This document shows positions 17,826-46,257 of a stretch of DNA of 64,000 nucleotides, in pieces (within the stretch, counting starts at the first letter, position 1; every line of letters begins with the position of its first letter). The notes under the pieces are model-generated. The model worked only from the letters and a program-made list of their open reading frames with translations. It did not search any database and had not been told where the DNA came from. The DNA comes from a virus. Both the position numbers and the translations under genes were made by a program. The stretch spans positions 71,313 through 135,312 of IMG/VR virus record IMGVR_UViG_3300002026_000025; one strand, written 5' to 3'.

Positions 17826-17934
17826 AAATCGTATTCCAGATTTTTTTTCAGTCACATATGACTAAATTGAATAGGTATAGTAATGTCTTACTAATACTGT
17901 TATTCATTAGCGTATATACGCTGAAAGGTCCATC
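17826..17934 (+). repeat. Cassette leader copy 2: promoter, leader hairpin and RBS
   Basis: 17826-17910 matches 46008-46091 except for T-run length and one substitution; AGCGTATATACGCT hairpin then GAAAGG. Confidence 0.9.
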
Positions 17935-18051
17935 ATGTTTTCAACAATCGGTAAGGTAGTGGTATCCTATATAATTATCAAAGTGGTAGCGCAATTGGTG
18001 CACATTGCTGTTGCACCAGTAGAAGATAAATTCTACTCTAATCGCCGTTGA
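17935..18051 (+). CDS. 38-aa hydrophobic peptide (cassette cargo), not in the ORF track
   Basis: MFSTIGKVVVSYIIIKVVAQLVHIAVAPVEDKFYSNRR*, GAAAGG RBS; N-terminus paralogous to 45095-45193. Confidence 0.7.
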   Translation: MFSTIGKVVVSYIIIKVVAQLVHIAVAPVEDKFYSNRR

Positions 18052-18105
18052 GTAGCTAATAGTTAGCTACAAAAAAATAAACCATCTGGGCTCTTATTTT
18101 TTTTT
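18052..18105 (+). terminator. Cassette 3' element
   Basis: GTAGCTAATAGTTAGCTAC hairpin then AAAAAAATAAACCATCTGGGCTCTTATTTTTTTT, a variant of the motif at 40863, 45329 and 46222. Confidence 0.7.
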
Positions 18106-20298
18106 TTACGGGTTAGCTGTATCCATTGTACCTCTACGTGTACCTGCGCCCATAAATAATGCACCTAAAAGATTTACACCTGGTACGTTTGCCATTTTCA
18201 TACCTATACTCGAAGGTGTAAACATTTGTTGTATGTTAGCTACTTTATGTTTTATCCGTTTTTCTAATATAGGTAACCTTTGCTCTGAATCTCTTAGGCT
18301 CAATGATGACAATGTCATCATGTAATCAGCAAAAGAATTTTCGCCATCGAACAAACCTTCAAAAGGATTAAATATACTGAAACCCTGGCTAATAGGCATT
18401 GTTAGAATTGTGGACATATCCACGATAGAAAAAGTTACATCTATTGCCATAGCTTCACCTTGATTGTTAAATCCTAAATTAGCAGTACCTCTTTGTATTG
18501 ACATTTGCTCAATAATACCCAATCTAGTAATAGATCTACCTCTATCGTAGAGTTCGCATAGGAATGGAGCAGTATACGATTGTTTACCAGTTGCCAATGG
18601 TAATGCACCAGCTAGTAACATACAAAGAGGCATATATATACTAAACAACTGCGAAATAGGATTTCCATATGGACTAATAAGTGTAAGTGTGTAACTAGCT
18701 CTAGGTAATATTGCAGATGCAGATTCCCAATGTTTAGGTATATCTACAATAGCGTTTCCTGCAAACGCAGCAAGTCCACCTATTTGTAATAAATTAGCAG
18801 TGCCTTGCACTATTGCACCTAAACCATCATAAATTGTTTTGGTTATTCCTAGACTATCTATGTTGCCATCAGCAAAATTAATTTTTATATTTCTAGCAGT
18901 ATTAGAAACATCATTTATTTTTTGTGCTAATGTGGATTCACCAATAGTGTTTTGAAATGACTCACCTGTAGGGCCAGTATAATCTACTCTAAAAGATGCC
19001 CAATCTGCACCTTCTGCCAAATTAGCAACAGATGCCTTAAAAGTTGATTCTAAAAAACTTTCAGTTTCAGGTCGTACTTTATAACTAGCACCTTCTACTT
19101 GTGGTTGTTTTTCGGATGCCTGCCTAATCCCTAACTCTAGTCCACTTGTGTCACTATCTTTTTTCGGATCGGATTTACCCCATAATGGCTCAATAATATA
19201 CCTCGATACTAAAGATTCTAATGTATTTTTTGTACGCCTCCCTCCTACAGTATCATTTGTTAAGCCAGCTACACCGTCACTGTAGCTTTTTACAATACCA
19301 AACCATTTTGCTGGATCTTCGTTACCTGGTTCGTTATATGCTTCATACATTTTTTGCAATAGTACACGATGCTCAGTCTCTATTACTTTAGAACGTGTTG
19401 CAATATAATAAACATCAATCATACCTGATTTTGACATCCCTGGAAATATAGAATTCATGACGCTAAATTGATCATCACTAAACATATATTTTTCATTAAT
19501 CAATTTATCGCCTTGTGCTACTCTACCTGCATAATTTATTATGCCTTTATTTGCACCTATTTGATTAACCATATTGGAAACTGCTTTCCAATAGAGTGGC
19601 ATAGCTGGTTTCAAATAATAAAATTTACTATCGGGCCATTTTGCAAAATAACGGATTGCTGCACCTAAACCCATAATCGCTATAGGTATAATCAAAAGAG
19701 GTAGCATAGCTACCAGTAATACGCTTTCAGCTGCTTTAAAAAACGTTTCAATAATATTACTGTCTACTCTGCCTGTTCTAGCCATATTAGATGCATGAGA
19801 GTTAAAAAATCCACCACCTACAAAAAATTGAGTTAATGAATTATATTGTGGAACTCCAAACCTCATGTGTATCACTTGCGAGTTATCGTCAATTGCCTCA
19901 GAATAATATCTACCCATTCCACCATAACCAGTTTTATACTCTAAAGATGTATATTTACCTTCACTTGAGTTTATAACAGAGTCACGTATATCTGCATATC
20001 GAGTAAATTGTGCTGGTGGATTTATACAAAAATTACCGCCTAAACTGGAATCAGTAAACTTAAAATAAGCAGAGGAATAATTTTTATTTAATTCATCGGA
20101 TTCTTCTAAATTAACAGTTGTAACGAATGATTTATTTATCCAGTTTTTTGTACCGGTTATAAATGATTGTCGTGACCATTGATCATCTCTTGGCATTGCA
20201 TCAGGATTACTATCAGTTGACTGGGTAGATAATAAAATATCTTCAACTTGAGCATCAATGTAACTACCGTTTTTTAAATTAATGTTTTCTTGCGCCAT
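18106..20298 (-). CDS. Virion tail/baseplate protein (phiKZ gp182-like)
   Basis: KFTDSSLGGNFCINPPAQFTRYAD, GRYYSEAIDD, SPYGNP motifs; follows the giant tail gene. Confidence 0.7.
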   Translation of the reverse strand: MAQENINLKNGSYIDAQVEDILLSTQSTDSNPDAMPRDDQWSRQSFITGTKNWINKSFVTTVNLEESDELNKNYSSAYFKFTDSSLGGNFCINPPAQFTRYADIRDSVINSSEGKYTSLEYKTGYGGMGRYYSEAIDDNSQVIHMRFGVPQYNSLTQFFVGGGFFNSHASNMARTGRVDSNIIETFFKAAESVLLVAMLPLLIIPIAIMGLGAAIRYFAKWPDSKFYYLKPAMPLYWKAVSNMVNQIGANKGIINYAGRVAQGDKLINEKYMFSDDQFSVMNSIFPGMSKSGMIDVYYIATRSKVIETEHRVLLQKMYEAYNEPGNEDPAKWFGIVKSYSDGVAGLTNDTVGGRRTKNTLESLVSRYIIEPLWGKSDPKKDSDTSGLELGIRQASEKQPQVEGASYKVRPETESFLESTFKASVANLAEGADWASFRVDYTGPTGESFQNTIGESTLAQKINDVSNTARNIKINFADGNIDSLGITKTIYDGLGAIVQGTANLLQIGGLAAFAGNAIVDIPKHWESASAILPRASYTLTLISPYGNPISQLFSIYMPLCMLLAGALPLATGKQSYTAPFLCELYDRGRSITRLGIIEQMSIQRGTANLGFNNQGEAMAIDVTFSIVDMSTILTMPISQGFSIFNPFEGLFDGENSFADYMMTLSSLSLRDSEQRLPILEKRIKHKVANIQQMFTPSSIGMKMANVPGVNLLGALFMGAGTRRGTMDTANP

Positions 20299-20344
20299 GT
20301 TTATTCCTTTTTAAAAATAGTCATTTTATTGCTCAATTAAATCA

Positions 20345-20389
20345 TAAATCCCAATATAGATATTACTCTATATTGGGATTTATTTTTTA
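20345..20389. terminator. Hairpin between the giant tail gene and the gp182-like gene
   Basis: TAAATCCCAATATAGA / TCTATATTGGGATTTA inverted repeat. Confidence 0.55.
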
Positions 20390-31976: not shown

Positions 31977-33957
31977 CATCTTTAAATTAATATTTTGGAC
32001 ATTTTGAAAACATATAGTATGTGTAAACAAACTGAAAGTACTGTATGTTGAAAGAATATGTTGAGATAAATGGTTTTATTCGCATACCGTTGACAGCAGG
32101 TCGATACTGCATTTCTTTAGATGGAAAAGTCATCGGTGAAGACGGTAAGGAAATATTGAAAACCATAGATGAAGATGGAGATCTTCAAATATGGGGAGAA
32201 TTATACAATGGTTACCAGTTTTACAAAGTTGCTTTGTTATCGGTTATATGTTTTAAATCAATTAAGATTTCTTGGCAACAATGGGATAAACTCGGTGTTA
32301 TGTTTATTGATGGCAATAGGTTAAATATCCATCCCAGTAATTTAATATTAAAACTACCCAAGGGTGGTTTAGAGCACCCTAAACACAATGGGTTTTATTA
32401 TATACCAGGATGCAGTTATTACCTAATCGATAAATATGGGCGTGTGTACTCTAGGACCAGTGATAGAATGATAACTATATATAACCTTGAGTCAGGGTAT
32501 CGTTCCTACAGTATACGAACAGATTTAGGTGAAAAATATACACTTGGCAGACACCGTGCGTTAGCATTAGCTTTCTTAGAATACACTGCAAATGTAGATG
32601 ACCTCGATGTTAATCACATTAATGGAATTCGAGGAAGCGATGATTTATCTAATTTAGAATGGTGCACACGACAACACAATTGTAATCACGCATATGCTAA
32701 TAATTTACGAACAGATAATAAACACATATTAGTGAAAAATATTTATACTGATGAAATAATAGATTATTATAGTAGAGGTGATTGTTCAAGGCGAACAGGT
32801 GTATTAGATGTAACAGTTGATTATAGGACCAAAACAGATGGTCAGGTTGTTTTTGACGACTGTTTTTTATATAAGAAAAAAGATAGCTTATCTGATTGGA
32901 TTGATTTAGCTACAGCGATATCCACTAATGCATTCATTAGATTCAAAACACCAGTTAAAGTTAAAAATGTTTTAACGGGTGAAATAGTAGTCTACGAGAG
33001 CATAACTGCGGCAGCCGCCGCTACTGGAATTGAAAGGGGGACAATTGATCTCAGATTGGTTAAAAATGCAAATACAGATTACGTTTTTGGATACCAATTT
33101 AAATCAATTGAAGATAAAACAGATTGGCTAGATATTAAAAATTCTACATTGGTTAATTTAAGAACTGAAGTCAAAATTAAAGACATAAAAACTGGTACTA
33201 TTACAACTCATGATAGTATCAAAAGTGCGAGTATATTTACAAATATACCCAAAAATAGAATTGAATATATACTTAAGACTAACAATGAAAAAGCATATAT
33301 GGGTTATCAATTTAAATACTTTCTTGATTCAACTGAATGGCTTGACATAACCGATATAAACTACGGTTATAAAAAAATCAATGCTTCTAGAAAAGTCGAA
33401 TGTTCGGATACTTCCACAAACAGCATTAGAATATTCGATACATTAAGAGAAGCGGAGAGAGTAACTGGAGTTTCAGTTAGAACAATTAGAGAGCATTTAT
33501 CTAACCCGGAACATAAAAGCTATAAAAATCTGAAATTTTCAGAAAAACTAAATTAATTATATCGACTTGAAATTTATTTCATGGATTAATTTATTGCGAA
33601 TAAATCTTTTTATAAAGATATTAATTTATAAACAGGTCCTACTATTCAGTAATGGATAGATAGAATCCTTTTGAATTGCTGGAACCACTCGCTAGACTAA
33701 TATACTACAATAGCCACGAAAGTAGACTATGAAAGTTTGAAAAATATTAGGTAGAGTCAATCAGCCCCTAAGCTCCTCTATGTAGAAATACAGTGGAGAA
33801 AGATCAACGGCCATCCCGTAGCTGGGAGTAGGGAACAGTGTTCCCGAAGTGGAAGGCTTCCAATCTATTGGAAGAAGATATGGTCTGCTCCTGTGCGAGA
33901 GTACAGGCAGGTGTTGTAGCACACCGGGTTAGAGTAACGAACTAACCGGACAATAGG
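31977..33957 (+). mobile_element. Group I intron 1 (IA-like) carrying an HNH endonuclease gene
   Basis: Core elements: P AATTGCTGGAA 33674, Q AATCAGC 33759, R TCAACGGCCA ~33804, S AAGATATGGTC ~33875; terminal G at 33957; splicing restores the frame. Confidence 0.88.
32045..33556 (+). CDS. Intron-encoded HNH homing endonuclease with NUMOD-type DNA-binding repeats
   Basis: HRALALAF...VNHINGIRGSDDLSNLEWCT..N..HA; a degenerate earlier HNH-like unit (FIDGNRLNIHPSNL); four C-terminal repeats of type VKN..TGEI..Y.SI..AA..TG. Confidence 0.9.
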   Translation: MLKEYVEINGFIRIPLTAGRYCISLDGKVIGEDGKEILKTIDEDGDLQIWGELYNGYQFYKVALLSVICFKSIKISWQQWDKLGVMFIDGNRLNIHPSNLILKLPKGGLEHPKHNGFYYIPGCSYYLIDKYGRVYSRTSDRMITIYNLESGYRSYSIRTDLGEKYTLGRHRALALAFLEYTANVDDLDVNHINGIRGSDDLSNLEWCTRQHNCNHAYANNLRTDNKHILVKNIYTDEIIDYYSRGDCSRRTGVLDVTVDYRTKTDGQVVFDDCFLYKKKDSLSDWIDLATAISTNAFIRFKTPVKVKNVLTGEIVVYESITAAAAATGIERGTIDLRLVKNANTDYVFGYQFKSIEDKTDWLDIKNSTLVNLRTEVKIKDIKTGTITTHDSIKSASIFTNIPKNRIEYILKTNNEKAYMGYQFKYFLDSTEWLDITDINYGYKKINASRKVECSDTSTNSIRIFDTLREAERVTGVSVRTIREHLSNPEHKSYKNLKFSEKLN

Positions 33958-33966
33958 TTTGACGGT
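33958..33966 (+). CDS. vRNAP beta' exon 2: 9-nt micro-exon TTT GAC GGT (Phe-Asp-Gly)
   Basis: Preceded by G, ends in U; GACGGU pairs with GCCGUC (33977-33982) with a U.G at the splice site; supplies the missing FDG. Confidence 0.88.
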
Positions 33967-34304
33967 AAATATCACTGCCGTCACTAAAACTTTTCTAATT
34001 GCTGGAAACTCTTGAAGATAAAACAACTACTGCGAAGCGAAAGCTAAAGCGAACTCTGTAAGGAGTCTAGAGAATTTATTCTCTAAAAGTTTGAAAATGT
34101 TTTATTATAAGACAATCAGCAGCCAAGACCCTAAAGCCAAATGCCATGGGTAAGGTTCAACGACTATCCCGTAAGGGAGTACATCCAAGTGGATGGAAAT
34201 GGAAGTTACTATTTTTATAGTAAAGATATAGTCTGTTCTATATGGAGACATATAGCTGTATTAATTATACGGGTGGGGATTAACGAACCCTATTGAACAC
34301 AAAG
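33967..34304 (+). ncRNA. Group I intron 2 (338 nt, no ORF, IA-like)
   Basis: P1 as above; P AATTGCTGGAAA 33997, Q AATCAGCAG 34114, R GTTCAACGACTA 34155, P7.1/P7.2 hairpins, S AAGATATAGTC 34223; terminal G at 34304. Confidence 0.92.
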
Positions 34305-34465: not shown

Positions 34466-37400
34466 ATGATTACATATCAATTATTTTATAGAAAATACGG
34501 GATTAGATTTGTTCAACAAATAATGACTCCGCCTATTTCAGATGTAATGTTATTAGATTTACCTATGAAATCTATTTATCATTATTTTCCAACAGATGGT
34601 GTTAACGATGGACCGCCTAGTGATGAATACTTGTTTAGAAATATAAAAAAGCCAATATTAATAAATAATGTTTTTGATGTAGGTTCTCAATTAGGGAGTC
34701 CAAGAAAACAAACAATTAATATTAATACAGCTGTTAGAGATTATTATAATCAAAACAGAAGAATGCGACCATTGAGAAATGTAGTTTTGGCCAGTAAGGA
34801 CCCAAATACTTTAATTGTTTGTAACTACTGTTTAATTAATAAATCGTACAAATATGTAAGAAGTTTTTATACCGAGTATTACAAATGGTATAATATTTTC
34901 TCCGCAGTAGTTAAAAATATTGCAGAGTTATCAGCTGAATCAAGTAACCATCATTTTATTTTAAGTGGTTCGCCTAAAATTATCCCAAGTTTAAATCAAC
35001 TCAACTTAGCTAGTGGCGCTGAAATGAGTACGGGTTTACTTAAAACATTTAATTCAAATGAAGCTTATTTATTATTAGAACTTTGGAAGTGGTTAAGTGA
35101 AAATAGGCAGAATAGCTTATTTGCTAAAATACCAAATAATAAAATAGATCTTGTAAATATTATCTATATTGAAACTGGTAAATGGTGTATTTTAAACTTA
35201 GGTGTTCTTAATAGTTTTAGAATGTCCGTAGAAGAAAAAAGTGATGATAAATTTATTATTGAATCTAAGATAACATTATCGCCAGAACAAATACAAAAAC
35301 GTTTGTTAAAGATGACCATGACAATCATGGAGTGTAGAACTATAACAACGAATGTCAGTGATGTGGTTGCAGATGAACCAAAGGAAATATCTGTAATAAC
35401 AGGTAATGCTATTGAAATTGATGATGAAATTCAAACTGATTCATTTGACAATGACAAAGAAATTGATGTAACTGAAATTAACAATTTTACCCCAATTGAC
35501 ACAGTATCACCTGAATCAGATATGCCTATAGATGAACAGTTGATAGTTTCGGATGATACTGAGTTTCTAGAAGAAGATCAGGAAATTATAAAACAAAGAA
35601 TTATTGATGAAGATGCACTTATTGACAAAGATCTGGCACAGTTAAATGATATTGCAAAAAAACAAGATGAAACTGAAGAGCAAGACATAAACACATTTAA
35701 AGATATTATCAATGAGCCAATACAAACATTGGAAAATGCAATACTCAAAAAATGTGATAAATTAGCAGATGATGGTTTATTGACTGCTGGTGAATACAGA
35801 AGATTTTCTAAACTAGCTAATTCATATAAACAAATACTCTCTCCTGACGATGTTACCCTATTATCCGAATTTATTGTTATTAAACCAGGAGATTTAAAAA
35901 TAACTGAATCATCTACAATGGTAGATAACACTGCAATCATCGATAAAACAATGTTGAAATCTAGTTTAATTGATTTTGATAGTAGATATATTAAAAACAT
36001 TTTAGCTAAAGATATTGCTAATGCAGTAATGTCTGTACAGAGAGCGGGTATTGCAGTTACAAATTACAAAGTGGAAAAAGTTGAAGATATTACTGGTGGC
36101 TTTGAAATACATACAGTTAAACTTACTCCAATTGAAGGAGCACCTTCTACTTTGAGATTTAAACTACCGTTAATTAATACAGATAGTACGTGGACTAGTT
36201 CAGACGTGAAATATTGTTTACGTAAACAGCGCGGTGACCTACCGATACGAAAGACAGCTTACAACAAAGTAGCACTCACTAGTTACTATGGCAAAACATT
36301 TATTAACCGAGCCAGAAAGAAAAATGCAAATTACAGCTATTGGTTACAAACTTTATTAATGCAAAAAGGTATTGACGATAACGATTTAGACATCACTGAT
36401 ATTGTACCTTCAAATGTATTTGATAATGCACTTAAATCACCTAAAGCTTATTCATCTATATCCATGGCATTTAAATCTTTTAAATGTAAAAATTTTACAT
36501 TTATGTTTGATAGGAAAGAAGTTTTATTAACTTATCCTGAAACAGTTTTAAAACATTTTGAGAAAAATGGTTCATTGGTTATTGGTTCTAATACATCAGG
36601 TGTTTATTTGATATTAGATAATAACAATTCTGTTTATATTACAGATAACTTGGAGTTAAAATTATTTGGTACAATTGAACAATTCTTAAATATTTCAACA
36701 CAAAACTCACCGGTGGAATATGCTGATATAAATGTATACGGTAAAGAAATCCCTATCGGGGTTATTTTGGGTTATAAAATTGGTCTGGATAAATTAATGG
36801 GGTTATTAAAAGCCGTACCAAGAAGAGTCAATGCTGGTAGTAGGTTAAATCTTGATAACAACGAATACGCAATAGCCTTCAGTGATGAGACATTAATTTT
36901 CAGTAAAGATGATAAATACGCCAGTATTATTCTATCTGGTTTTAATGAATATCATAGAGCTATTAAGATGTTCAGTGTATATAGTTTTGACAAAAGAGGT
37001 GTTTATCTTAACTTGCTAGATTCTGCTAACTTAGGTGTCAGGTACTTAAGAGAGATAGATTTAATGTACGATATGTTTATAGATGATATCACTAAAGATC
37101 TATTAATCGAAATGAAAGAACCTGTTACGTTTCAGGGTTTATTATTTCGCGCGTGTGAGATGTTAATGACCGACGAACATCCAGATGAACTCGATCCTAG
37201 ATTCATGCGTATCAAAGGTTACGAGAGAATTAGTGGTGCTGTCTACACTGAACTAGTTCAAGCTATTCGTGTACATAATGGTAAATTAGGCAAGTCTAAT
37301 AAACAAATTGAAATGAATCCATATGCAGTATGGAAGAGGGTTTCAGAAGATCCATCGAAATCACAAGTCAATGAAATCAATCCAATTAAAGCTTTGAAAG

Positions 37401-38791
37401 AATTGGAAGCAGTTACGTTATCTGGAACTGGTGGTAGGAATAAACGTAGCATGACAGCACCTACTAGAATTTATCATAAAAACGATATGGGTACAGTATC
37501 AGAATCGACAGTCGATTCTTCAGACGTAGCCATTAATGTGTTTATGAGCGCTGACCCACAGTTCAATTCTTTACGAGGTATATCTAAACCCTATGATTTT
37601 AAAACAACTGGTGTTACTGCATTATTATCAACATCTGCATTAACTGCTCCTGGGTCAGACAGAGACGATCCACGTCGTGTCAATTTCGTCGCTATACAAC
37701 AAGAGCACGTTATTGCTTGTGATGGTTATAAACAAGCTTCAGTTAGAACTGGATACGAACAAATAATTCCACAAAGGAGCGGTGATTTATTTGCAATGAC
37801 AGCTAAGAAACCTGGTATTGTTAAATCAATAACTGAAACAGGTATCGTCGTTGAATACGATGATAAAGAAACTGTTGGTTATGAATTAGGTACCAGATTT
37901 GGCAAAGCAGCCGGTTTAATTATTCCGCATTCAGTAGTAACACAATTAAAGGTAAATCAGAAATTTGTACCCGGAGATGCAATCTGCTATAATGAAGGGT
38001 TTTTCGAGCCAGACTTTTTTAATAAAAATAGAATTGTATTTAAGAATTCTACCACTGCTAAAGTTGCATTTTGGGAAAGTCATCAGACTTTAGATGATTC
38101 GTCTGCACTTAGTGCTAAGATGGCAGATAAGCTTATGACAAAAATAACTAAGATGAAAACCATTGTAGTTAGATTTGATCAAGTCATTAATAGATTAGTT
38201 AAAGTTGGTGATAAATTAATATCCGATAGTGCGTTATGCATTATTGAAGATTCTATTACTTCTACTAATAAACTATTTGACGAAAAAAATTTAGATACAT
38301 TAAAAATAGTAGGCGCACAAGCACCGAGGTCACATGTGGATGGCATTGTTGAAAAAGTAGAAGTATTTTATAATGGTGATAAAGAAGACATGTCTGCATC
38401 ACTATTGGAAATTGTCAACAGTGGAAATAAGTTACTTAAAAAACATGCAGATAGTTTAAATAGAAAACCGTTTACTGGTAGCGTTGACGGTGGATTTAGA
38501 ACTGAAAATGATCCATTAGGTATAGATTGTGCAGCTATTCGAATCTATATATCCACTAATGTACCTAGTTCTGTAGGTGACAAAATAGTGTTCTCTAATC
38601 AGTTAAAGAGTGTAACAGGTAGTATTTTAGATGGTGAATATATCACGGAAAACGGTGATGAAATAGACGCTTTATATGGATATAAAGGTGTGAGTGATCG
38701 AATAGTGTCGAGTCCGTATATTATAGGCACAACAACAACACTATTGAAAGTAATTGCAAAACAAGCAGTTAAGATATATAAAAGTAAGTGA
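34466..38791 (+). CDS. Virion RNA polymerase beta subunit, N-terminal/large part (phiKZ gp178-like)
   Basis: RKQRGDLPIRK, RIKGYER, GTGGR, SESTVDSSDV, DDPRRVNF, GDKIVFSNQLKS. Confidence 0.9.
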   Translation: MITYQLFYRKYGIRFVQQIMTPPISDVMLLDLPMKSIYHYFPTDGVNDGPPSDEYLFRNIKKPILINNVFDVGSQLGSPRKQTININTAVRDYYNQNRRMRPLRNVVLASKDPNTLIVCNYCLINKSYKYVRSFYTEYYKWYNIFSAVVKNIAELSAESSNHHFILSGSPKIIPSLNQLNLASGAEMSTGLLKTFNSNEAYLLLELWKWLSENRQNSLFAKIPNNKIDLVNIIYIETGKWCILNLGVLNSFRMSVEEKSDDKFIIESKITLSPEQIQKRLLKMTMTIMECRTITTNVSDVVADEPKEISVITGNAIEIDDEIQTDSFDNDKEIDVTEINNFTPIDTVSPESDMPIDEQLIVSDDTEFLEEDQEIIKQRIIDEDALIDKDLAQLNDIAKKQDETEEQDINTFKDIINEPIQTLENAILKKCDKLADDGLLTAGEYRRFSKLANSYKQILSPDDVTLLSEFIVIKPGDLKITESSTMVDNTAIIDKTMLKSSLIDFDSRYIKNILAKDIANAVMSVQRAGIAVTNYKVEKVEDITGGFEIHTVKLTPIEGAPSTLRFKLPLINTDSTWTSSDVKYCLRKQRGDLPIRKTAYNKVALTSYYGKTFINRARKKNANYSYWLQTLLMQKGIDDNDLDITDIVPSNVFDNALKSPKAYSSISMAFKSFKCKNFTFMFDRKEVLLTYPETVLKHFEKNGSLVIGSNTSGVYLILDNNNSVYITDNLELKLFGTIEQFLNISTQNSPVEYADINVYGKEIPIGVILGYKIGLDKLMGLLKAVPRRVNAGSRLNLDNNEYAIAFSDETLIFSKDDKYASIILSGFNEYHRAIKMFSVYSFDKRGVYLNLLDSANLGVRYLREIDLMYDMFIDDITKDLLIEMKEPVTFQGLLFRACEMLMTDEHPDELDPRFMRIKGYERISGAVYTELVQAIRVHNGKLGKSNKQIEMNPYAVWKRVSEDPSKSQVNEINPIKALKELEAVTLSGTGGRNKRSMTAPTRIYHKNDMGTVSESTVDSSDVAINVFMSADPQFNSLRGISKPYDFKTTGVTALLSTSALTAPGSDRDDPRRVNFVAIQQEHVIACDGYKQASVRTGYEQIIPQRSGDLFAMTAKKPGIVKSITETGIVVEYDDKETVGYELGTRFGKAAGLIIPHSVVTQLKVNQKFVPGDAICYNEGFFEPDFFNKNRIVFKNSTTAKVAFWESHQTLDDSSALSAKMADKLMTKITKMKTIVVRFDQVINRLVKVGDKLISDSALCIIEDSITSTNKLFDEKNLDTLKIVGAQAPRSHVDGIVEKVEVFYNGDKEDMSASLLEIVNSGNKLLKKHADSLNRKPFTGSVDGGFRTENDPLGIDCAAIRIYISTNVPSSVGDKIVFSNQLKSVTGSILDGEYITENGDEIDALYGYKGVSDRIVSSPYIIGTTTTLLKVIAKQAVKIYKSK

Positions 38792-38862: not shown

Positions 38863-39066
38863 ATGCATTTGAAATCAGAAAAAACAGTGCTAACAATCAG
38901 TAACGCTATTGCTTTAAGCGCAGCTATTATAGAAAAAATAGCTGGTAATGAAATAGCAAATACTTTAAATGGTTCTACATTAACTAGCTCTGCACTGCAC
39001 GACATTATCGGAAGTCAAATCAATAAGAACTTCTCTAATTTTACAAATCAAGGAGTACCAGTATGA
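38863..39066 (+). CDS. Small hypothetical protein (67 aa)
   Basis: AAGGA RBS before ATG 38863; ATGA overlap with the next gene; hairpin ATGCCGGTATCTACCGGCAT upstream. Confidence 0.6.
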   Translation: MHLKSEKTVLTISNAIALSAAIIEKIAGNEIANTLNGSTLTSSALHDIIGSQINKNFSNFTNQGVPV

Positions 39067-40505
39067 TTCCGATGACAGCAGCGACTGCTTCTATAGGTGT
39101 GGCACAAGAGTTTGATAAACGCCAATTAATGCTTGATGCTGTACCAGGTACACCATTAGCAAAAATAAACGAATGTACTGCTTTAAATAAAGTCGATATT
39201 GTAGATGCAATTAATTATGAACCTAATGAAAAAGATTTATTTAATCAAACTAGTAACTACGGAAGTACAAATGGGTCTATTCATAGCACTACGGTAGATG
39301 CACTAGCGGAAGATATATCTAAGTTTGTGCAATCTCATTTAAATTTTGCGAAAAATACAGTAAGACCATTGATTGAAGAATTGGTTAATGAAGTCAAAGC
39401 AGATATTGAAGCATTACCATTAAATTCACAATACAGTACAGAGATAATTATCTCTGATTTACCAGAACCTATGAGTGTATCATCTTTTGAAGATGCAGTT
39501 ATGGAGTATAAAAATATAGATTATTGTCCAATTAATAATTATATGTCGTTACCAGGTCAAGCTGTAGCCGATGTAATTGCTAATTTAACTACAGGTAACT
39601 CTAATCTAGATAAGGCAGTTAGTACTTGGATTGCTAAAAAAGGTGATTCATTTTTCCAACATGTTTGGGATTGTGTCTTTACAAGTACACCAACTGAACA
39701 AAGATTTGAGAATCTCATTAATGATCCAGATGAAGGTATTGATGCAGCTGTTGCAGTTTATTTAATTGCATCTAGATTATTTGATAATCCAATGGACGGT
39801 GTACAGTTATCTTTAATGACTTACAATAAGCAAATGGCTGAATTAAGAAATCAAGCAGCATTGCGAATTGTTCATGCATATGAAGAATATGTTAGATTCA
39901 AGACAACTGGTTTATTAGTAAAAAGTAGTATTAATAACCGGGTAGTGGTAATGGGTGATGAGTATCGTAAATGGATCAGCGAAGGTGGCAACAATGCTGT
40001 TCTTTTTGGTAATTCATTAACTACAAATCCAAGTAAATTCACTAATGATATTAACGAGAAAAAAGCAGATTACTTAGCGACATGGGAGAGACAAAATTGG
40101 ATGCTCACTGTGGCCGAAAGAAACAAGAAGTTTGTTTATTATAAAGAAATTTTAAGAAACAGAACTTTGAAATTGGTGATGGATAATTACCAAAAATGTT
40201 ATAGTCATTTACGTGAAAATGGTGTAACTGATTCTAATATGCCCGAGTATTTACAATTTCAGAAAAATCTAGATGAATTCTTACCATGTGTTAAAGAAAG
40301 TGATTTTAAAGATATTTGGAATTTGGCTTTAAACACTATCTGTACTTGTGTATTCTACTATACAGACGCGGGTAAAATTTTAAGCGGAATTGAGCAAGCA
40401 TGTTGTGAAAATGAAGGTATTCATGTTAGAGAAGCTGCATTGATTTCTACGATCATGTATGTCGTTGATTATGTATGCGATCAAATGAAATTGAGTAGCA
40501 TTTAA
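39063..40505 (+). CDS. Conserved phiKZ-like protein (gp177-like by synteny)
   Basis: 480 aa, AGGAG RBS, PGTPLA and HLNFAKNTVRP; lies between vRNAP beta and the protease cluster. Confidence 0.65.
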   Translation: MIPMTAATASIGVAQEFDKRQLMLDAVPGTPLAKINECTALNKVDIVDAINYEPNEKDLFNQTSNYGSTNGSIHSTTVDALAEDISKFVQSHLNFAKNTVRPLIEELVNEVKADIEALPLNSQYSTEIIISDLPEPMSVSSFEDAVMEYKNIDYCPINNYMSLPGQAVADVIANLTTGNSNLDKAVSTWIAKKGDSFFQHVWDCVFTSTPTEQRFENLINDPDEGIDAAVAVYLIASRLFDNPMDGVQLSLMTYNKQMAELRNQAALRIVHAYEEYVRFKTTGLLVKSSINNRVVVMGDEYRKWISEGGNNAVLFGNSLTTNPSKFTNDINEKKADYLATWERQNWMLTVAERNKKFVYYKEILRNRTLKLVMDNYQKCYSHLRENGVTDSNMPEYLQFQKNLDEFLPCVKESDFKDIWNLALNTICTCVFYYTDAGKILSGIEQACCENEGIHVREAALISTIMYVVDYVCDQMKLSSI

Positions 40506-40506: not shown

Positions 40507-40612
40507 AATAGTATTTCAGAATTTTTCAGTCACATATGACTATTTTGAATAGGTATAAGAATGTCTCTTGTACTGTATGTTTACAATTGCACATTGTGCT
40601 GAAAGGTTTATC
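40507..40612 (+). repeat. Cassette leader copy 3
   Basis: AATAGTATTTCAGAATTTTTCAGTCACATATGACTATTTTGAATAGGTATAAGAATGTC...GCACATTGTGC hairpin, TGAAAGGTTTATC, GTG start. Confidence 0.85.
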
Positions 40613-40855
40613 GTGACACCATGCAAACAATTCACTTCGTTTAACGAAGTGTTCAGCCTTAGTAAAACCGAAGCCAGGACGTTAAACTCATTTGTGGTTA
40701 ATGATTTTGGTGCAGGTAGCACTAGGGTTGTAATAGTAGATTTCTCTACAGCGGATAATACCGCATGTGGAGAAGATAGAGCGCAGTTGGAGGCCGCACG
40801 ACCATTGCTCCAAAAGAACCGAAACTGCTGCCCATTCTTCGTCAGAACAATCTGA
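40613..40855 (+). CDS. 80-aa cassette cargo protein
   Basis: GTG at the same position as the ATG of other cassettes; MTPCKQFTSF...NRNCCPFFVRTI*; visibly GC-richer than its flanks. Confidence 0.65.
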   Translation: MTPCKQFTSFNEVFSLSKTEARTLNSFVVNDFGAGSTRVVIVDFSTADNTACGEDRAQLEAARPLLQKNRNCCPFFVRTI

Positions 40856-40862: not shown

Positions 40863-40897
40863 AAAACAACCCGGTGGCGGGCTCTGTTTTTTTTTTT
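40863..40897 (+). terminator. Cassette 3' element
   Basis: AAAACAACCCGGTGGCGGGCTCTGTTTTTTTT, identical to 45329-45360. Confidence 0.8.
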
Positions 40898-40918: not shown

Positions 40919-41644
40919 GTGGACATCAAGCAATTAGTCCGAGACCCCGAGAAAGTCAAGAGTGTCTTGGTAGAACTTCCGGATGGACGATTGACAACTA
41001 AAGCGTTAGTCAAAATTTATATACCTACCAGGTTTGCAGAACGAGATCTTGCTTATATTGGTGCTGATAACAACATTGTGGGTATCTGCGCAATTACATT
41101 AAACGATGATAGCTACGCCATCATGATGGTCAACGCTATGGTCAATATTGATCCGTCTTCTATAAACCGTGTCTCTATTGAAGATGATCAGTATTTTGAA
41201 TTTACATTTAATCCAGGTGCTACTGTTTTTAAATCAGTGAATTTAATTAAAGATGATATCTTAGTATACAAGATATATGATGAAATTATATCAAATGGAA
41301 ATGTGCCTTGGTATTTGACTTATTCTGATTTAGGTAAAATATTTGATACTGCACCATATCACGGTGGTGCAAATATCGGTAATAATAAGGAAGTCACAGA
41401 ACTTATTGTATCGCTTATTGCAAGAGACCAAGCTGACAGGACAAAATACTATAGGACAGCGTTAAACTCTATGGCTGATTTAAAGAAGAGTGAGCCTGTT
41501 TATGTAGGATTAAAGAGTGTCGTGTACTCTGCCACTAACACACTCAATCGGTTAGGTGGAAGCTATATGCAAAGTGGAATCACTGCTTCTTTAGTCAATA
41601 AAACAGAAAGAGTGGAGCGCATTGAATCTATACTCTGCCGATAG
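40919..41644 (+). CDS. Conserved phiKZ-like protein (gp176-like)
   Basis: GGAG RBS before GTG 40919; GNVPWYL, ARDQADRTKYYR, GGSYM; directly upstream of the protease. Confidence 0.7.
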   Translation: MDIKQLVRDPEKVKSVLVELPDGRLTTKALVKIYIPTRFAERDLAYIGADNNIVGICAITLNDDSYAIMMVNAMVNIDPSSINRVSIEDDQYFEFTFNPGATVFKSVNLIKDDILVYKIYDEIISNGNVPWYLTYSDLGKIFDTAPYHGGANIGNNKEVTELIVSLIARDQADRTKYYRTALNSMADLKKSEPVYVGLKSVVYSATNTLNRLGGSYMQSGITASLVNKTERVERIESILCR

Positions 41645-41821: not shown

Positions 41822-42571
41822 ATGAATAATACTATTGGTTTTTCTTGTGCTGCTTTAAATGGAACCGGTAAGCAAGGTAGGTTACCTAAAGACTCTGATG
41901 GGTACTATACATTGCCAGTAGGGGCCCTCAACTCATGGAATTCTGCAGGAGATTACTATCCATATGAAGCAGCAAAAGAATTATTTACTGAATCTAGTAG
42001 TTTCATGCGAAGAGTAAGTACAGGTTGTTTAAAGAGTGAGTTAGGTCACCCTAAACCACTGCCTCAACAATCGATGGAATCTTTTGCTAACAGAGTTATG
42101 GCAATTGAAGAAACTAGAGTGTGCGGACACTTCTCACAAATCTGGTTAGATTTCAATGCAGTCAAAGATGAAACAGGTAGGCCAGTAATTGCTATTATGG
42201 CAAAAGTAGCACCTAGTGGACCATTCGCTTTATCATTAGAAAAGTCTTTAGAAAACATTAAGGAAGATGTTTGTTTTTCAATTAGGGCATTTACTGAAGA
42301 TGTGCCAGTTGCAGGCATCAAACACAGAATGCTAAGACAAGTAGTGACTTTTGATAATGTAGTAGAACCCGGAATAAGTGTCGCTAGAAAATATAGATCT
42401 CCTACATTGGAATCATATTCAGATAAAGTTTTCACTAAAGAAGATATTATCAAAGCATCTATTCCTACTGGTGATGGTATATCGATGGAATCTACTAAAC
42501 AATTAAACAACGACTTATTAAGTATTCTAGGTTGGAATCAGTTAGATAAACCAAATTTTATTAAATGGTAA
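41822..42571 (+). CDS. Prohead/head maturation protease (phiKZ gp175-like)
   Basis: DGYY, GALNSWNSAG, SELGHP (His), CFSIRA (Ser), VTFDNVVEPGI; C-terminal TLES/SMES candidate self-cleavage sites. Confidence 0.9.
   Translation: MNNTIGFSCAALNGTGKQGRLPKDSDGYYTLPVGALNSWNSAGDYYPYEAAKELFTESSSFMRRVSTGCLKSELGHPKPLPQQSMESFANRVMAIEETRVCGHFSQIWLDFNAVKDETGRPVIAIMAKVAPSGPFALSLEKSLENIKEDVCFSIRAFTEDVPVAGIKHRMLRQVVTFDNVVEPGISVARKYRSPTLESYSDKVFTKEDIIKASIPTGDGISMESTKQLNNDLLSILGWNQLDKPNFIKW
42540..42571 (+). repeat. 32-bp direct repeat, copy 1 (3' end of the protease gene)
   Basis: AGTTAGATAAACCAAATTTTATTAAATGGTAA. Confidence 0.95.
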
Positions 42572-42588: not shown

Positions 42589-44070
42589 ATGAAAAAAAAG
42601 ATTATGGCTAATATAGTTTTAGAATCTGCTTATGATAACGTCAGTGATGATGAATTATTTGAGTCTAAAATTGATTTAGAAAATAAAAATAACGATATAG
42701 AAAACAGAAATGATGCTATTAATGAAGCAGTAGATGTAGCTAAATCTCTTGAATCTATCGCTATTGCATTAGAATGCTCGCCTGGTTTAGAACCACACGT
42801 GGCTAATGCTTTGAACATTGCAGTAAGTCATATGTGCAAACAGATCGGTTACCGCAAAAGAGTAATACCGTCAATGGAATCATTTGGAGGTCACTCTACA
42901 AAAAAACAAGCTACTATGGAATCTGTAGAAGGGCTTAAAAATACAGCTATAATGATTTGGGAAAAAATCAAAGCAACTATTATTGCATTGGGCCAGAAAC
43001 TCAAAGAATTCTTTAAAAGTATTTATGATTATTTTCAATCATTTTTTAATAATACACAAAAAGAAGCTGAAAAACAAGAAAATAATCTCGGAAATCTTGA
43101 AGATGAAGTAAATGAATTCCTAAAGAAAAACAAAAATAGGAATAATGATAAACATACAGATACTAAACAAGAAGACAAATCGTATAAAGATAATAAAACA
43201 ACTAGTGATAATGAACCTAATGATGAAACAATAAAAAAAATATTATTGTTAACACATGAAAAAAAATTGCCAATTAATTCACATGAATTAGCAGGTGATT
43301 TTGATGGATTAAATGTTATATCTAAAGATGTATTAGAGACTTTAGGTTACCCTAATGGTGAAGCAGCGCGTGCATTAACTTCTGATTTCAGTTCCTACTT
43401 TAGAGTAAAGTGCGGAGTATATACTAAAGCTGTTATCGGTTTATATAAAGAAATACAAAAAAGTTTTATAAATTTATCATCTGGAATTAATAAAATATCG
43501 GATTCAGACTTTGAAATTAAGTTAAATGAACATAAAGAATTTGTTAAAAAGTTAATTAGCAATAATCAGCTCACATTAACAATTCCATTTGGTAATTCTA
43601 AATGGTACATTGAACCTAATGGACAAGGATATCCAAAAATAAAAATTAGTTCGGATCCAAATGCCTCTCTTTATTTATGGCATTGCGCTGGTACCAGTAT
43701 TAAATCAAATATTTTACCAACACTAGATGAATTTGGAAAAGATTCATTTATTGATATTTTTACAAAACAAAGTGAGCAATTAACTAGTTTTATAAAAATG
43801 ATTATTAATAAAGATGGGATTGATTTTGATGACCCAGCTGATTTACTCAGAGCTAAAAGACTAGATATTTTAGTTGTAATGATGAGTTCCTTTACAAATC
43901 AAATGGCGTTTAATTGTAAAATTTTAACTTTTTATACTAGCAGGGCTATTAAAGCAATGCTAAAATACACACAATTATCTATATCTAATACTAGGGTTAT
44001 ATGCTCATATTTACAAAAAAGAGATGGGTATATTCGTGATTTAGAAGAACTCAAAGGTTCTTGGTTTTAA
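42589..44070 (+). CDS. Internal head protein with cleavable acidic propeptide
   Basis: SLESI, ALECS, PSMESF, TMESVEG sites followed by an IWEKIK...LKEFFK helix typical of phiKZ-like inner head proteins. Confidence 0.7.
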   Translation: MKKKIMANIVLESAYDNVSDDELFESKIDLENKNNDIENRNDAINEAVDVAKSLESIAIALECSPGLEPHVANALNIAVSHMCKQIGYRKRVIPSMESFGGHSTKKQATMESVEGLKNTAIMIWEKIKATIIALGQKLKEFFKSIYDYFQSFFNNTQKEAEKQENNLGNLEDEVNEFLKKNKNRNNDKHTDTKQEDKSYKDNKTTSDNEPNDETIKKILLLTHEKKLPINSHELAGDFDGLNVISKDVLETLGYPNGEAARALTSDFSSYFRVKCGVYTKAVIGLYKEIQKSFINLSSGINKISDSDFEIKLNEHKEFVKKLISNNQLTLTIPFGNSKWYIEPNGQGYPKIKISSDPNASLYLWHCAGTSIKSNILPTLDEFGKDSFIDIFTKQSEQLTSFIKMIINKDGIDFDDPADLLRAKRLDILVVMMSSFTNQMAFNCKILTFYTSRAIKAMLKYTQLSISNTRVICSYLQKRDGYIRDLEELKGSWF

Positions 44071-44078: not shown

Positions 44079-44110
44079 AGTTAGATAAACCAAATTTTAT
44101 TAAATGGTAA
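44079..44110 (+). repeat. 32-bp direct repeat, copy 2
   Basis: Exact match to 42540-42571. Confidence 0.95.
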
Positions 44111-44148: not shown

Positions 44149-44155
44149 TATGCTA

Positions 44156-44192
44156 TTTTTAAAATTTATCAATCGTATATTACTAATATGTG
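44156..44192 (+). promoter_or_regulatory. Putative early promoter motif
   Basis: TTTATCAATCGTATATTACTAATATGTG contains TATATTAC. Confidence 0.6.
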
Positions 44193-44218
44193 TTATCAAT
44201 AGAAATGCAGATTTAACT

Positions 44219-44587: not shown

Positions 44588-44671
44588 AAATTGCATTCTA
44601 TATTTTTCAATTATACATTATTTATTTAGATTATTAACCATAATGCAGTTATTACTGCGAAAGGATTTGTT

Positions 44672-44989
44672 ATGTTTTCTGTTTCAACAAACGAGTATAT
44701 TATCATCGTATCAATTGCTTTTGTCTTGACAGCAATATGTTCGATATTCTATAATGAGGCATTAGACATCTCGGTTTCAATGTACCCATCTAAGTATCGC
44801 TTTATTATCAAAGCGGGCAGTGTGTTATTTTGTTATGCAATTAACTTCTGGTTACCAATTGCAATGATGACAATAATTTTATTTATCCCGTCAGTATACT
44901 TGGCCAAATGGTATACTGATTATTTAAAGCAAGAAGCTGCGGTTCGCCGTGCCGATCGTAATTGGAATACTAGGCGTTTCAATAATTGA
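44672..44989 (+). CDS. Small membrane protein
   Basis: Two to three hydrophobic segments; preceded by a promoter-like motif (44595-44630), a GCAGT..ACTGC hairpin and GAAAGG. Confidence 0.7.
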   Translation: MFSVSTNEYIIIVSIAFVLTAICSIFYNEALDISVSMYPSKYRFIIKAGSVLFCYAINFWLPIAMMTIILFIPSVYLAKWYTDYLKQEAAVRRADRNWNTRRFNN

Positions 44990-44992
44990 TTT

Positions 44993-45094
44993 AATCGTAT
45001 TCCAGAATTTTTCAGTCACATATGACTAAATTGAATAGGTATGGTAATGTCACTGTACAATTCGATTTAGCGTCTTTACGCTGAAAGGTTTATC
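44993..45094 (+). repeat. Cassette leader copy 4
   Basis: AATCGTATTCCAGAATTTTTCAGTCACATATGACTAAATTGAATAGGTATGGTAATGTC...AGCGTCTTTACGCT GAAAGGTTTATC ATG. Confidence 0.9.
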
Positions 45095-45193
45095 ATGTTT
45101 GCAACAATTGGAAAAGTAGCAGTGGTATTAGTAGTTGTCAATGTAATACTGACAATCATAAATGCTGATGCCCAAAAACAAGAAAAAAAATGA
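45095..45193 (+). CDS. 32-aa hydrophobic peptide (cassette cargo)
   Basis: MFATIGKVAVVLVVVNVILTIINADAQKQEKK*. Confidence 0.65.
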   Translation: MFATIGKVAVVLVVVNVILTIINADAQKQEKK

Positions 45194-45321
45194 AAGACTT
45201 CACAGATAAGTACGGGGGCGCAATCGAGAAAGCGTTTTTTGCTGGCTGTGTAGCAGCAGCAGCAGTAGCGCCAGTATTATTTACAATCGCTATATACAGC
45301 AGGCTTAAAGCCGCCGTATAA
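45190..45321 (+). CDS. 43-aa hydrophobic peptide, ATGA-coupled to the previous ORF
   Basis: MKDFTDKYGGAIEKAFFAGCVAAAAVAPVLFTIAIYSRLKAAV*; fills the space up to the 3' element. Confidence 0.55.
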   Translation: MKDFTDKYGGAIEKAFFAGCVAAAAVAPVLFTIAIYSRLKAAV

Positions 45322-45328
45322 TCAACAC

Positions 45329-45362
45329 AAAACAACCCGGTGGCGGGCTCTGTTTTTTTTTT
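45329..45362 (+). terminator. Cassette 3' element
   Basis: AAAACAACCCGGTGGCGGGCTCTGTTTTTTTT. Confidence 0.8.
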
Positions 45363-45462
45363 GTTTAAATGTAATCTAAAATAATTCAATCATATATAAC
45401 TTATATGAATGAATATATAGATTGTCTAATTATTTGTTCAATTAAACACGTAAGGAAATTTT

Positions 45463-46002
45463 ATGCACGCAACTTTTGAAACAATAATTGGTAAACTTAC
45501 AACAGTACTGATTGAGGCGGGTGTTGAGTTGACACAAGAGGAAACCGTAATGATAGATGACTTGATGGGTGTTTTAGATATCCATCAAACTAATGTGACA
45601 TGTGTTATAGATGATGGCACTTTAGTATTGGATATTCTTTTGTCGGTTGAACAATCGGAAAAACATAATGAGATATGTGAAGCTTTGTTAGATCTAGCTG
45701 TTAAAGACGATTTTAAAATCGAAAATTCTTTAATAGAAGGAAAGACAAATTTCACTCTGACCAAAACTAGGTTGACTTCGAAACCAGATGCAACAGCTAA
45801 GACAGAGCCAGAACAAAAGGAAAAGAATAGTGAACCGGAACCAGAAAAGAAAGCAGAAAAAACTGAAAGTGTTAAACCCATTAATCCACTCAGTTCAAAA
45901 CCAGTTAAAGAGTTTCAAATTGCAGCAGCACTTAAAACTGGTGTTTTAGTAGGAACTTTCTTGATGGGAACAGCTGCATTATTTAAAGCGTTTAAAGATT
46001 AA
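45463..46002 (+). CDS. Acidic protein with C-terminal hydrophobic anchor
   Basis: AAGGA RBS; promoter-like motif at 45374-45412; P/E/K-rich linker then IAAALKTGVLVGTFLMGTAALF. Confidence 0.7.
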   Translation: MHATFETIIGKLTTVLIEAGVELTQEETVMIDDLMGVLDIHQTNVTCVIDDGTLVLDILLSVEQSEKHNEICEALLDLAVKDDFKIENSLIEGKTNFTLTKTRLTSKPDATAKTEPEQKEKNSEPEPEKKAEKTESVKPINPLSSKPVKEFQIAAALKTGVLVGTFLMGTAALFKAFKD

Positions 46003-46007
46003 GTTCT

Positions 46008-46091
46008 AAAATCGTATTCCAGATTTTTTCAATCACATATGACTAAATTGAATAGGTATAGTAATGTCTTACTAATACTGTTATTCATTAG
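46008..46091 (+). repeat. Cassette leader copy 5
   Basis: Near-identical to 17826-17910; lacks the hairpin-GAAAGG segment. Confidence 0.9.
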
Positions 46092-46104
46092 TGTAAATCT
46101 GGTG

Positions 46105-46209
46105 ATGGAGCATAAAGCAGAGGCAGCTGCGATTGCAGCTGCTGGCGTTGCTGTGTACAAAACGGCTACAGTTGTATACTCGTACTTTGCTACTAAGACA
46201 GCTGCTTAA
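46105..46209 (+). CDS. 34-aa Ala-rich peptide (cassette cargo, possibly truncated)
   Basis: MEHKAEAAAIAAAGVAVYKTATVVYSYFATKTAA*; weak RBS; the frame is also open back to ATG 46039 inside the promoter motif. Confidence 0.4.
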   Translation: MEHKAEAAAIAAAGVAVYKTATVVYSYFATKTAA

Positions 46210-46257
46210 TAAGCAGCTGTTAAAAAACAACCCATGCGGGGCTCTGTTTTTTTTTTT
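46198..46257 (+). terminator. Cassette 3' element
   Basis: ACAGCTGCTTAATAAGCAGCTGT hairpin then AAAAAACAACCCATGCGGGGCTCTGTTTTTTTT. Confidence 0.75.

Follow-up and report, generated by a model that had tools for sequence, protein, structure and literature searches.

Repeated promoter-leader and terminator elements around variable small genes in a phiKZ-like phage: candidate PeSL-like or moron-like expression modules

The 64,000-nucleotide (nt) stretch analysed here, which we call the window, makes up the final 64 kb of virus record IMGVR_UViG_3300002026_000025 (referred to as G000), which is 135,312 nt long. At several places in the window, always on the plus strand, a conserved promoter-like leader (P_A) precedes a small open reading frame (ORF) and, with one exception, a conserved terminator-like hairpin (T). 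This raises the question whether P_A and T are simply regulatory signals or the ends of units through which small genes move between related phages. We favour the latter, with a probability of about 0.6: the repeats are best read as expression modules resembling morons or the promoter-early stem-loop (PeSL) cassettes of T4-type phages. Recombination at the conserved ends of these modules would add, remove or exchange genes. Positions are those of the window; a prefixed g marks positions in the whole record.

The 1,441-amino-acid (aa) RNA polymerase (RNAP) beta subunit encoded in the window matches PHROG 3148, and tblastn with this protein returned 312 phage records, all below 60% identity and headed by Burkholderia phage FLC9 (44.6%). 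These matches are phiKZ-like jumbo phages of Ralstonia, Xanthomonas, Pseudomonas and Erwinia. The G+C content of G000 is 32.3%, and its DNA is present in three microbial-mat runs from two studies; megablast of window positions 17000-19000 against isolated phages gave no match. The closest relative is an 80,723-nt fragment (G003; loci L011, L038 and L042) with conserved gene order and proteins that are 40-84% identical. A second fragment of 55,664 nt (G004; L043, L047 and L048; 45-85% identity) matches the part of the genome upstream of the window, and a more distant relative (L012) shows 59-77% amino acid identity.

An earlier note on this DNA had claimed five copies of the leader in the window, and motif counts agreed with this. 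The 14-mer AATCGTATTCCAGA, with up to two mismatches, gave six plus-strand matches against 0.57 expected (3948, 17827, 40507, 44993 and 46010, as well as 16391, which lacks the remaining motif), and a 30-nt core with up to three mismatches gave four against 0.00 expected. The copy at 3948 is degenerate and was detected by the shorter motif only. When the whole record was searched, seven units (A1 to A7) were found, all on the plus strand, the extra two lying upstream of the window at g24412 (A1) and g30422 (A2). As the note had also stated, the units begin close to upstream stop codons, 0-15 nt past them, and run on to the Shine-Dalgarno (SD) sequence and start of a small ORF. All seven contain promoter-like and terminator-like sequences, and the description of self-contained units, each with a promoter-like element, leader, one or two small ORFs and a terminator, could be retained. 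That the repeats stem from a fault in one single assembly was ruled out, as Logan contigs from the three runs match parts of A5-A7 without differences (for instance X2 record 14 over 45333-46036 and X3 record 23 over 46144-46508; X1 may be the source sample).

P_A is a two-part element, in which an ATTCYAGA box is followed after 13 nt by ATATGACT and then by about 20 conserved bases that would be the first to be transcribed. Eleven copies from G000, G003 and G004 align over about 55 nt including these bases, and the box is kept in both relatives. A search of the whole record for the box (one mismatch allowed), 11-16 nt and then ATAT[G/T]ACT or close variants gave 11 sites on the plus strand and none on the minus strand. 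The sites in the window are at 11127, 17833, 40513, 44999 and 46016. Six of the 11 belong to the units (family A) and five do not, so family A is the most uniform subclass of this two-part promoter. About ten simpler motifs, CACATATTACTAAT[A/T]TG after AT-rich DNA, were also found in the record, again all on the plus strand. Between the box-type promoter at 11127 and gene 11389 lie about 240 nt free of ORFs, and in G003 a 3.3-kb early-gene block is inserted just upstream of the orthologous promoter.

According to PMC7598289, the early promoters of jumbo phages have a conserved AT-rich element, roughly 10 nt long, with its centre near -10; for phiKZ, PMC8244752 describes an extended -10 and, upstream of -19, a T-rich motif. 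The core CACATAT[G/T]ACTAA, with five to eight T residues upstream, fits this description, and the likeness to phiKZ early promoters that had been noticed before appears sound at the level of sequence. The literal phiKZ motif TATATTAC given in the earlier note is absent from the text of these two papers and was not confirmed. An upstream box of the ATTCYAGA type is not mentioned in the descriptions of phiKZ promoters that were consulted. Given the published layout, transcription would be expected to start near AATAGG, with AATAGGTATAGTAATGTC as the probable 5' end of the transcript. None of the 50 sigma-70-like sites found between 38000 and 50000 lies on a P_A element. The exact leader pattern CACATATGACTAWWTTGAATAGGTAT had no match in IMG/VR and the exact pattern CACATATGACTANNTTGAATAGGTAT none in JGI metagenome contigs; the relatives carry one base difference in this stretch and were detected by a looser pattern. 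A further match to the looser pattern (L045) was a chance match.

The core also contains an ATG (CACAT-ATG-ACT...), from which a leaderless peptide beginning MTKLNRYSNV could be read. This ATG and the first ten codons are common to A2, A4, A6 and A7 and occur with changes in A5, and in A7 the frame stays open to the stop codon of the cargo gene, giving 56 aa. That the leader is itself coding is nevertheless highly improbable, and we rejected this reading. The ATG lies within the presumed -10 element and therefore upstream of the expected start (PMC7598289), and it is missing from A1, A3 and the copy at the A1 site of G004. The frame ends after 20-33 codons at varied places, a 1-nt indel separates A2 from A7, and the differences between copies show no bias towards synonymous sites. 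Moreover, the search for leaderless transcripts in phiKZ yielded none (PMC8244752).

The units differ in how complete they are. In A3 (3948-4191) the promoter is degenerate (3948-3992, AATCGTAATCTAGA-T7-CAGTCACATATACTAC), neither of the candidate ORFs (4007-4126, 39 aa, or 4023-4148, 41 aa) has a clear SD sequence, and the unit ends in a hairpin of its own (4135-4173) and a T-rich tail in place of T. The promoter-leader of A4 (17826-17887) consists of the box ATTCCAGA, a T8 spacer, CAGTCACATATGACTAAATTG and the conserved bases AATAGGTATAGTAATGTC. It is followed by the hairpin AGCGT-ATAT-ACGCT (17909-17922), the SD sequence GAAAGG (17923-17928), an ORF for a hydrophobic 38-aa protein starting MFSTIGKV (17935-18051) and a variant of T (18071-18107, AAAAAAATAAACC-ATCT-GGGCTCTTATTTTTTTTTTT) that directly borders on the stop codon of gene 18106-20298, a convergent gene on the minus strand. 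A5 starts 1 nt past the stop codon of gene 39063-40505 with its promoter-leader at 40507-40565, and continues with the hairpin GCAC-ATT-GTGC (from 40589), GAAAGG (40601-40606), a GTG-initiated ORF (40613-40855, 80 aa) and T (40863-40897, AAAACAACCCGGTGGCGGGCTCTG-T11).

The promoter-leader of A6 (44993-45051) lies 3 nt past the stop codon of gene 44672-44989. The hairpin AGCGT-CTTT-ACGCT with GAAAGG (45069-45088) precedes two overlapping ORFs, A6a (45095-45193, 32 aa, MFATIGKV...) and A6b (45190-45321, 43 aa), and T (45329-45362) is followed by a plain early-promoter-like motif (45373-45407). In A7 the promoter-leader (46008-46068), a direct repeat of that of A6 at a distance of 1,017 nt, leads to an ORF of 34 aa (46105-46209, MEHKAEAAAIAAAG...) that has neither hairpin nor clear SD sequence and is a paralogue of the A2 cargo (g30492-30593). 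The T of this unit (46222-46257) has the loop ATGCG, and a plain early-promoter-like motif stands directly 3' of it (46257-46289). Such composites of a terminator and then a promoter thus occur at 45329-45407 and 46222-46289, and also at g24760-24830.

Searching the whole record for GGGCTCTGTTTTTT with up to two mismatches gave six copies of T, each of which closes a P_A unit (A1, A2, A4, A5, A6 and A7). None was found elsewhere, apart from weak matches without hairpin context at g125641 (plus strand) and g36763 (minus strand). In IMG/VR, the T pattern matched one unrelated high-GC phage (L037), which we took as chance. One identical 34-nt T is shared by A1, A5 and A6, the terminators of the two window units being 95% identical over 39 nt, whereas A2, A7 and A4 differ in loop or stem. 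The common 3' element noted previously therefore closes A4 to A7, and the first copy in the window, A3, ends in a different hairpin. The consensus AACAACCC-N4-6-GGGCTCTG-Tn would fold into an A/U outer stem and a CCC(G)/(C)GGG inner stem. Among nine copies 97.7% of cells were paired, compared to at most 61.6% when the 3' partner was slid, and in three of the nine a C-G pair of the outer stem has become U-A (AATAA...CTCTATT in the relatives and likewise in A4, against AACAA...CTCTGTT in G000). The T elements of G003 and G004 keep the same GGTGGC loop. As a hairpin T is weak (-5 to -14 kcal/mol), which suggests that its conservation is more than structural. Complementarity between the leader and the terminator loops was not seen in a comparison made by eye.

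A4, A5 and A6 have in common, as had been noticed, a hairpin with GAAAGG in the 5' untranslated region (5'UTR). Its 4-5-bp GC-containing stem is separated from GAAAGG by 0-2 nt, and the start codon comes 6 nt after GAAAGG. The same layout with other stems was found in nine more early units of G000, G003 and G004, which were picked by eye. At least eight different GC stem sequences precede GAAAGG in these 12 early units of three phages (in the window and in L042, L043, L047 and L048), and the hairpin may be a conserved module for translation initiation or mRNA stability. A stem search was positive in 12 of 12 units compared to 1.9% of random 20-mers, a figure that is descriptive only since the sequences were preselected for a visible hairpin. 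RNAalifold found no consensus among ten 5'UTRs, because the loops vary in length.

The cargos of A1-A7 encode 32-82 aa, and all those tested are ORFans. No Pfam family reached the gathering score with the seven cargo and neighbouring proteins, and Rfam had no match on the units, a group I intron being the one family found in the window. The A1 cargo matched only itself among 5.8 billion proteins. Its single-sequence model is beta-rich and moderately confident (predicted local distance difference test, pLDDT, 70) and found no structural match at E <=0.001 in PDB or BFVD, the best rows being a SANTA domain (E 0.01) and small uncharacterised phage proteins (E 0.006-0.1). For the A5 cargo, the matches were itself and a weak hit to a 1,057-aa protein with nine Calx-beta repeats (E 2e-5 library-wide). 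This likeness covers residues 23-61 (43% over 40 aa), and Pfam detected no Calx-beta domain; the model is poor (pLDDT 46.6). The A5 cargo may be a captured gene fragment, which we regard as a lead only. At the A1 site of G004, the cargo matched itself and two relatives at 64-65%. The G+C content of several cargos, 0.43-0.58 across A1, A2, A5, A6b and the cargos of G004 (0.505 for the A2 ORF, 0.466 for the A1 unit, 0.462 for A6b and 0.431 for A5), compares with a mean of 0.323 (standard deviation 0.054) in 250-nt windows of G000.

Two pairs of cargos are related. A2 and A7 are whole-unit duplicates (87.8% over 254 nt), and in a comparison of 30 codons 19 match exactly, 5 show synonymous changes and 6 show non-synonymous but conservative ones, a pattern that speaks for a translated peptide of 33-34 aa. 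MF(S/A)TIGKV is common to A4 and A6a, as is a hydrophobic stretch; in A6b the C-terminal half is hydrophobic. Short hydrophobic proteins behind structured 5'UTRs would also be compatible with modules of the type I toxin-antitoxin kind, in which an antisense or leader RNA restrains the mRNA of a toxic hydrophobic peptide. We consider this the least probable of all the readings weighed here, because the A1 and A5 cargos are not hydrophobic, no antisense promoter motif was found (none of the 11 two-part promoters is on the minus strand) and no Rfam family other than the group I intron was detected in the window.

A trace of recombination within G000 is seen in the A4 unit. Over 82 nt (17843-17924) its leader is 93% identical to that of A7, which was compared up to 46105, in line with the near-identity of these two copies claimed before, but only 63% identical to that of A6. 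From 17907 onwards, however, A4 is 74% identical to A6 over 78 nt, which take in the hairpin, the SD sequence and the start of the ORF, and no longer resembles A7. A leader like that of A7 joined to a hairpin and ORF like those of A6 indicates that A4 is a chimera, and on its sequence we regard it as the product of recombination between two other units, the switch falling near 17905-17915.

The units could also be actively mobile cassettes with machinery of their own, integron-like or homing-like. In that case an enzyme encoded by the phage, a recombinase or a nuclease, would bind the leader or T (perhaps at the invariant GGGCTCT), and cassettes would travel as circles from site to site and from genome to genome. 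GGGCTCT and the GGTGGC loop are conserved beyond the needs of a weak hairpin, and the units are placed precisely behind stop codons. One X3 contig joins the end of T to the start of P_A, a weak hint given that the likeness is 85% and the side 34 nt long. Even so, active mobility is very unlikely. Neither target-site duplications nor terminal inverted repeats were seen when the unit edges were read, T and P_A also occur singly, and no recombinase or nuclease gene was seen beside any unit (no systematic search was made), a point that also weighs against our own reading. The joints and loose ends of Logan contigs at P_A and T, considered as signs of circles or excision, were not counted, since de Bruijn contigs break at repeats and the joints are explained by the genome's own paralogous units. 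These contigs were aligned at 85% likeness with sides of mostly about 30 nt, and at least the loose end at 46095 corresponds to the genome's own A4. The higher summed depth on the repeats is expected and was not used.

The relatives were compared site by site. The gene pairs that hold units are directly adjacent in 11 of the 12 relatives examined. At the A5 site, the flanking genes 39063-40505 and 40919-41644 are adjacent in all ten distant IMG/VR relatives. In G003 they are separated by 53 nt with one hairpin and no unit, whereas in L012 T directly follows the upstream gene and is succeeded by an unrelated 221-aa gene. The A4 site, between convergent genes, holds no unit but only a bidirectional hairpin in G003. 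While A3, A4 and A5 lie between conserved genes, A6 and A7 are part of a variable island. At the syntenic place this island is missing both from G003, which has a related box-type promoter and a gene of about 250 aa there, and from L012, which has two other genes.

In the reverse direction, G003 carries a P_A unit with a GC-rich 79-aa cargo after its homologue of gene 6602-8050, where the window has only terminator hairpins (8050-8332). After the homologue of 10786-11127, a P_A in G003 drives a 34% identical homologue of gene 44672-44989, which is followed by further hairpin-GAAAGG genes; the window lacks these genes, and any P_A unit, at this site, and its own copy of the gene is in the A6/A7 island. 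Looking for empty sites in relatives thus revealed two window sites and two sites specific to the relative that are empty in the counterpart.

Two sites occupied in both phages could be compared between G000 and G004. At the A1 site, the left 133 nt (an upstream hairpin and P_A) are 89% identical and the right 35 nt (T) 94%, but the interiors show no nucleotide similarity and encode 82 and 123 aa (blastp E 0.08). At the A2 site, which lies between orthologous genes, 68 nt of P_A are 91% identical, the cargos are unrelated (33 and 75 aa) and the terminators differ. Cargo variability as originally proposed thus applies between relatives; within G000 it is not general, A2/A7 and A4/A6a being paralogous pairs. 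The proposed swapping of genes between fixed flanks is likewise upheld by the unrelated cargos at these two shared sites and by the empty sites, but not as the work of a dedicated mobility mechanism. The likeness to PeSL cassettes also holds in this comparison with relatives.

Several observations weigh against exchange at the ends. Promoter and terminator activity and early timing are inferred, as there was no RNA run among the sequencing runs matching the phage. Two of the cargo differences within G000 amount to ordinary paralogy (A2/A7 and A4/A6a), and the G+C contents of A4 (0.385) and A6a (0.313) resemble the backbone. The relatives are distant (40-85% amino acid identity), so that replacement of a tiny ORF is not strictly separable from extreme divergence. 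P_A and T, including the loop of T, are conserved across these divergent phages, and selection on regulatory function alone can explain this. In G000 (at g15091) as well as in G004, a sister (type C) box-type promoter stands at the same site and precedes the same gene (39% identity), indicating that the parts are general regulatory signals and not marks of a dedicated element. In G003 a T ends a 3.5-kb multi-gene unit, and in L012 a T with stem and loop identical to those of A2 (3350-3414) stands directly 3' of a 476-aa gene of the structural block. Since no promoter or cargo precedes it, the latter could be the remnant of a unit or simply the terminator of that gene.

For these reasons we also considered that the repeats are nothing but regulatory signals kept by selection, P_A being the strongest class of early promoter and T the preferred terminator, while the ORFans evolve fast and generic indels occur independently of the ends. 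P_A and T are 89-94% conserved between phages whose flanking proteins are 45-85% identical, a sequence-conserved motif is described for 61 terminators of phiKZ (PMC10914365), T and box-type promoters also serve genes outside the cassettes, and the relatives are too distant to place junctions at nucleotide resolution. As a full account this is nonetheless unlikely: it leaves aside that A4 is clearly chimeric and switches within its leader, that all six T copies in G000 occur with P_A, that homology at the A1 site ends at the inner edges of P_A and T around cargos of 82 and 123 aa, and that units sit inside gene pairs adjacent in nearly all relatives. Recombination at the shared ends is the better explanation, given that the cargos differ in length, that homology stops sharply at P_A and T, and that A4 is a chimera. 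The term "recently active" used before had to be given up, though. Because P_A and T are lineage-wide signals shared by phages with 40-85% identical proteins, and T serves other genes too, the identity of the flanks reflects function as much as recency and is no evidence of recent activity.

Under recombination at the shared ends, the repeats would be the parts by which a phiKZ-like jumbo phage from microbial mats routinely expresses one class of its early genes. The first part would be a promoter for the phage's own virion RNA polymerase, made up of the ATTCYAGA box, a 13-nt T-rich spacer, CACATATGACTAA and about 20 conserved transcribed bases. It would often be followed by a small GC-stemmed hairpin directly before the GAAAGG ribosome-binding site, then by one or two small ORFan genes, mostly for putative single-helix membrane peptides, and finally by T, whose weak but sequence-conserved hairpin and long U tract would end the transcript. 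As these ends are common to many units, both within the genome and across related, co-occurring phages, they could act as patches of homology. Units could be copied or recombined there, placed between core genes, deleted, or equipped with a new cargo. Overall, this would amount to modular shuffling of the PeSL or moron type on signals of a phage RNAP. Translation of the peptides and homologous recombination as the mechanism are, like the activity of the signals, what we infer from the DNA.

A bolder version, which we put forward only tentatively, is that P_A with its leader and T form a lineage-wide "expression socket", at which co-infecting phages exchange or capture foreign, often GC-rich small genes, even inside the core virion and RNAP gene blocks. 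It would be the counterpart of PeSL on phage-RNAP signals, and the roughly 20 conserved bases and GGGCUCU would have a second role as sites of recombination or protein recognition.

The window has other features that are independent of the units. A group I intron (Rfam RF00028, 85.4 bits, full-length model) lies at 33934-34255 on the plus strand, just upstream of the RNAP beta ORF (34466-38791), and is preceded by a 503-aa ORF (32045-33556). An exact 32-nt direct repeat (42540-42571 and 44079-44110) brackets a 493-aa gene resembling those of internal head proteins (42589-44070); in G003 a related gene is found elsewhere, between the homologues of 40919 and 41822. The ORF at 57365-60382 (1,005 aa) consists largely of collagen-like Gly-X-Y repeats, and similar repeats occur upstream in the record.

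Giant phages that carry their own RNAP have hundreds of small genes of unknown function, whose gain and turnover are poorly understood. The present case gives, in sequence, defined regulatory ends that hold different small genes in related phages. These ends offer a handle for finding accessory early genes that gene callers miss, likely encoding peptides for host takeover or exclusion, and they predict sites at which new genes could be inserted without disturbing their neighbours. The statement that no such system had been described for phiKZ-like phages stands for the literature searched: we found no account there of a shared promoter-leader and terminator frame with swapped cargo, most subscription journals being outside the reach of that search.

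How, then, do the units compare to known systems? Like the PeSL cassettes of T4-type phages (Arbiol et al. 2010, PMC2839356; Comeau et al. 2014, PMC4122927), they combine an early promoter, a stem-loop and an SD sequence, and appear to frame small ORFan genes as transcriptionally insulated units. In both systems the module marks the places at which related phages differ by insertion, deletion or replacement (the relatives here sharing 40-85% amino acid identity), and copies recombine with each other, as in the mosaic A4. The PeSL promoter, however, is sigma-70-like, having -35 and -10 consensus sequences and an AT-rich region upstream, whereas P_A is of the phiKZ virion-RNAP type with an upstream box of its own. 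The PeSL stem-loop lies in or next to the promoter and ends upstream transcription, while here a stem-loop is found in the 5'UTR before the SD sequence (three of seven units), a separate, sequence-conserved T closes the unit, and about 20 transcribed bases are conserved as well. Moreover, PeSLs are concentrated in hyperplastic regions; of our units, A6 and A7 lie in a variable island but several others inside core gene blocks. The relatives compared here are far more distant than phi1 and RB49. The authors of the PeSL study drew a comparison with integron gene cassettes as an analogy (PMC2839356); we saw no integrase beside any unit, although no systematic search was made.

Morons (Juhala et al. 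2000, cited via PMC10914365) are the second point of comparison, and single-gene "moron-like" transcription units have been described in phiKZ (PMC10914365). The units share with morons the layout of a putatively autonomous promoter, gene and terminator between genes that are adjacent in relatives (the A5 and A4 sites) and, for several cargos, a G+C content that departs from the backbone. Classical morons, however, each come with unrelated signals of their own and are known chiefly from prophages, whereas here many units share one promoter-leader and one terminator and the cargo varies in between. With respect to the signals of phiKZ, the likeness consists in an AT-rich extended -10-like element with a T-rich stretch upstream (PMC8244752, PMC7598289), in all copies lying on one strand, and in terminators that share a sequence motif beyond their structure (PMC10914365). 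The additional ATTCYAGA box 13 nt upstream sets P_A apart from the phiKZ promoter, and T is unlike the phiKZ terminator motif BCCYCCCCHWWDGGGRRGGBYTTATKYYGT (PMC10914365) in sequence but of the same kind, a conserved hairpin and a U tract. Taken together, these comparisons would extend the PeSL idea from T4-type phages, which depend on the host RNAP, to the host-independent phiKZ-like phages.

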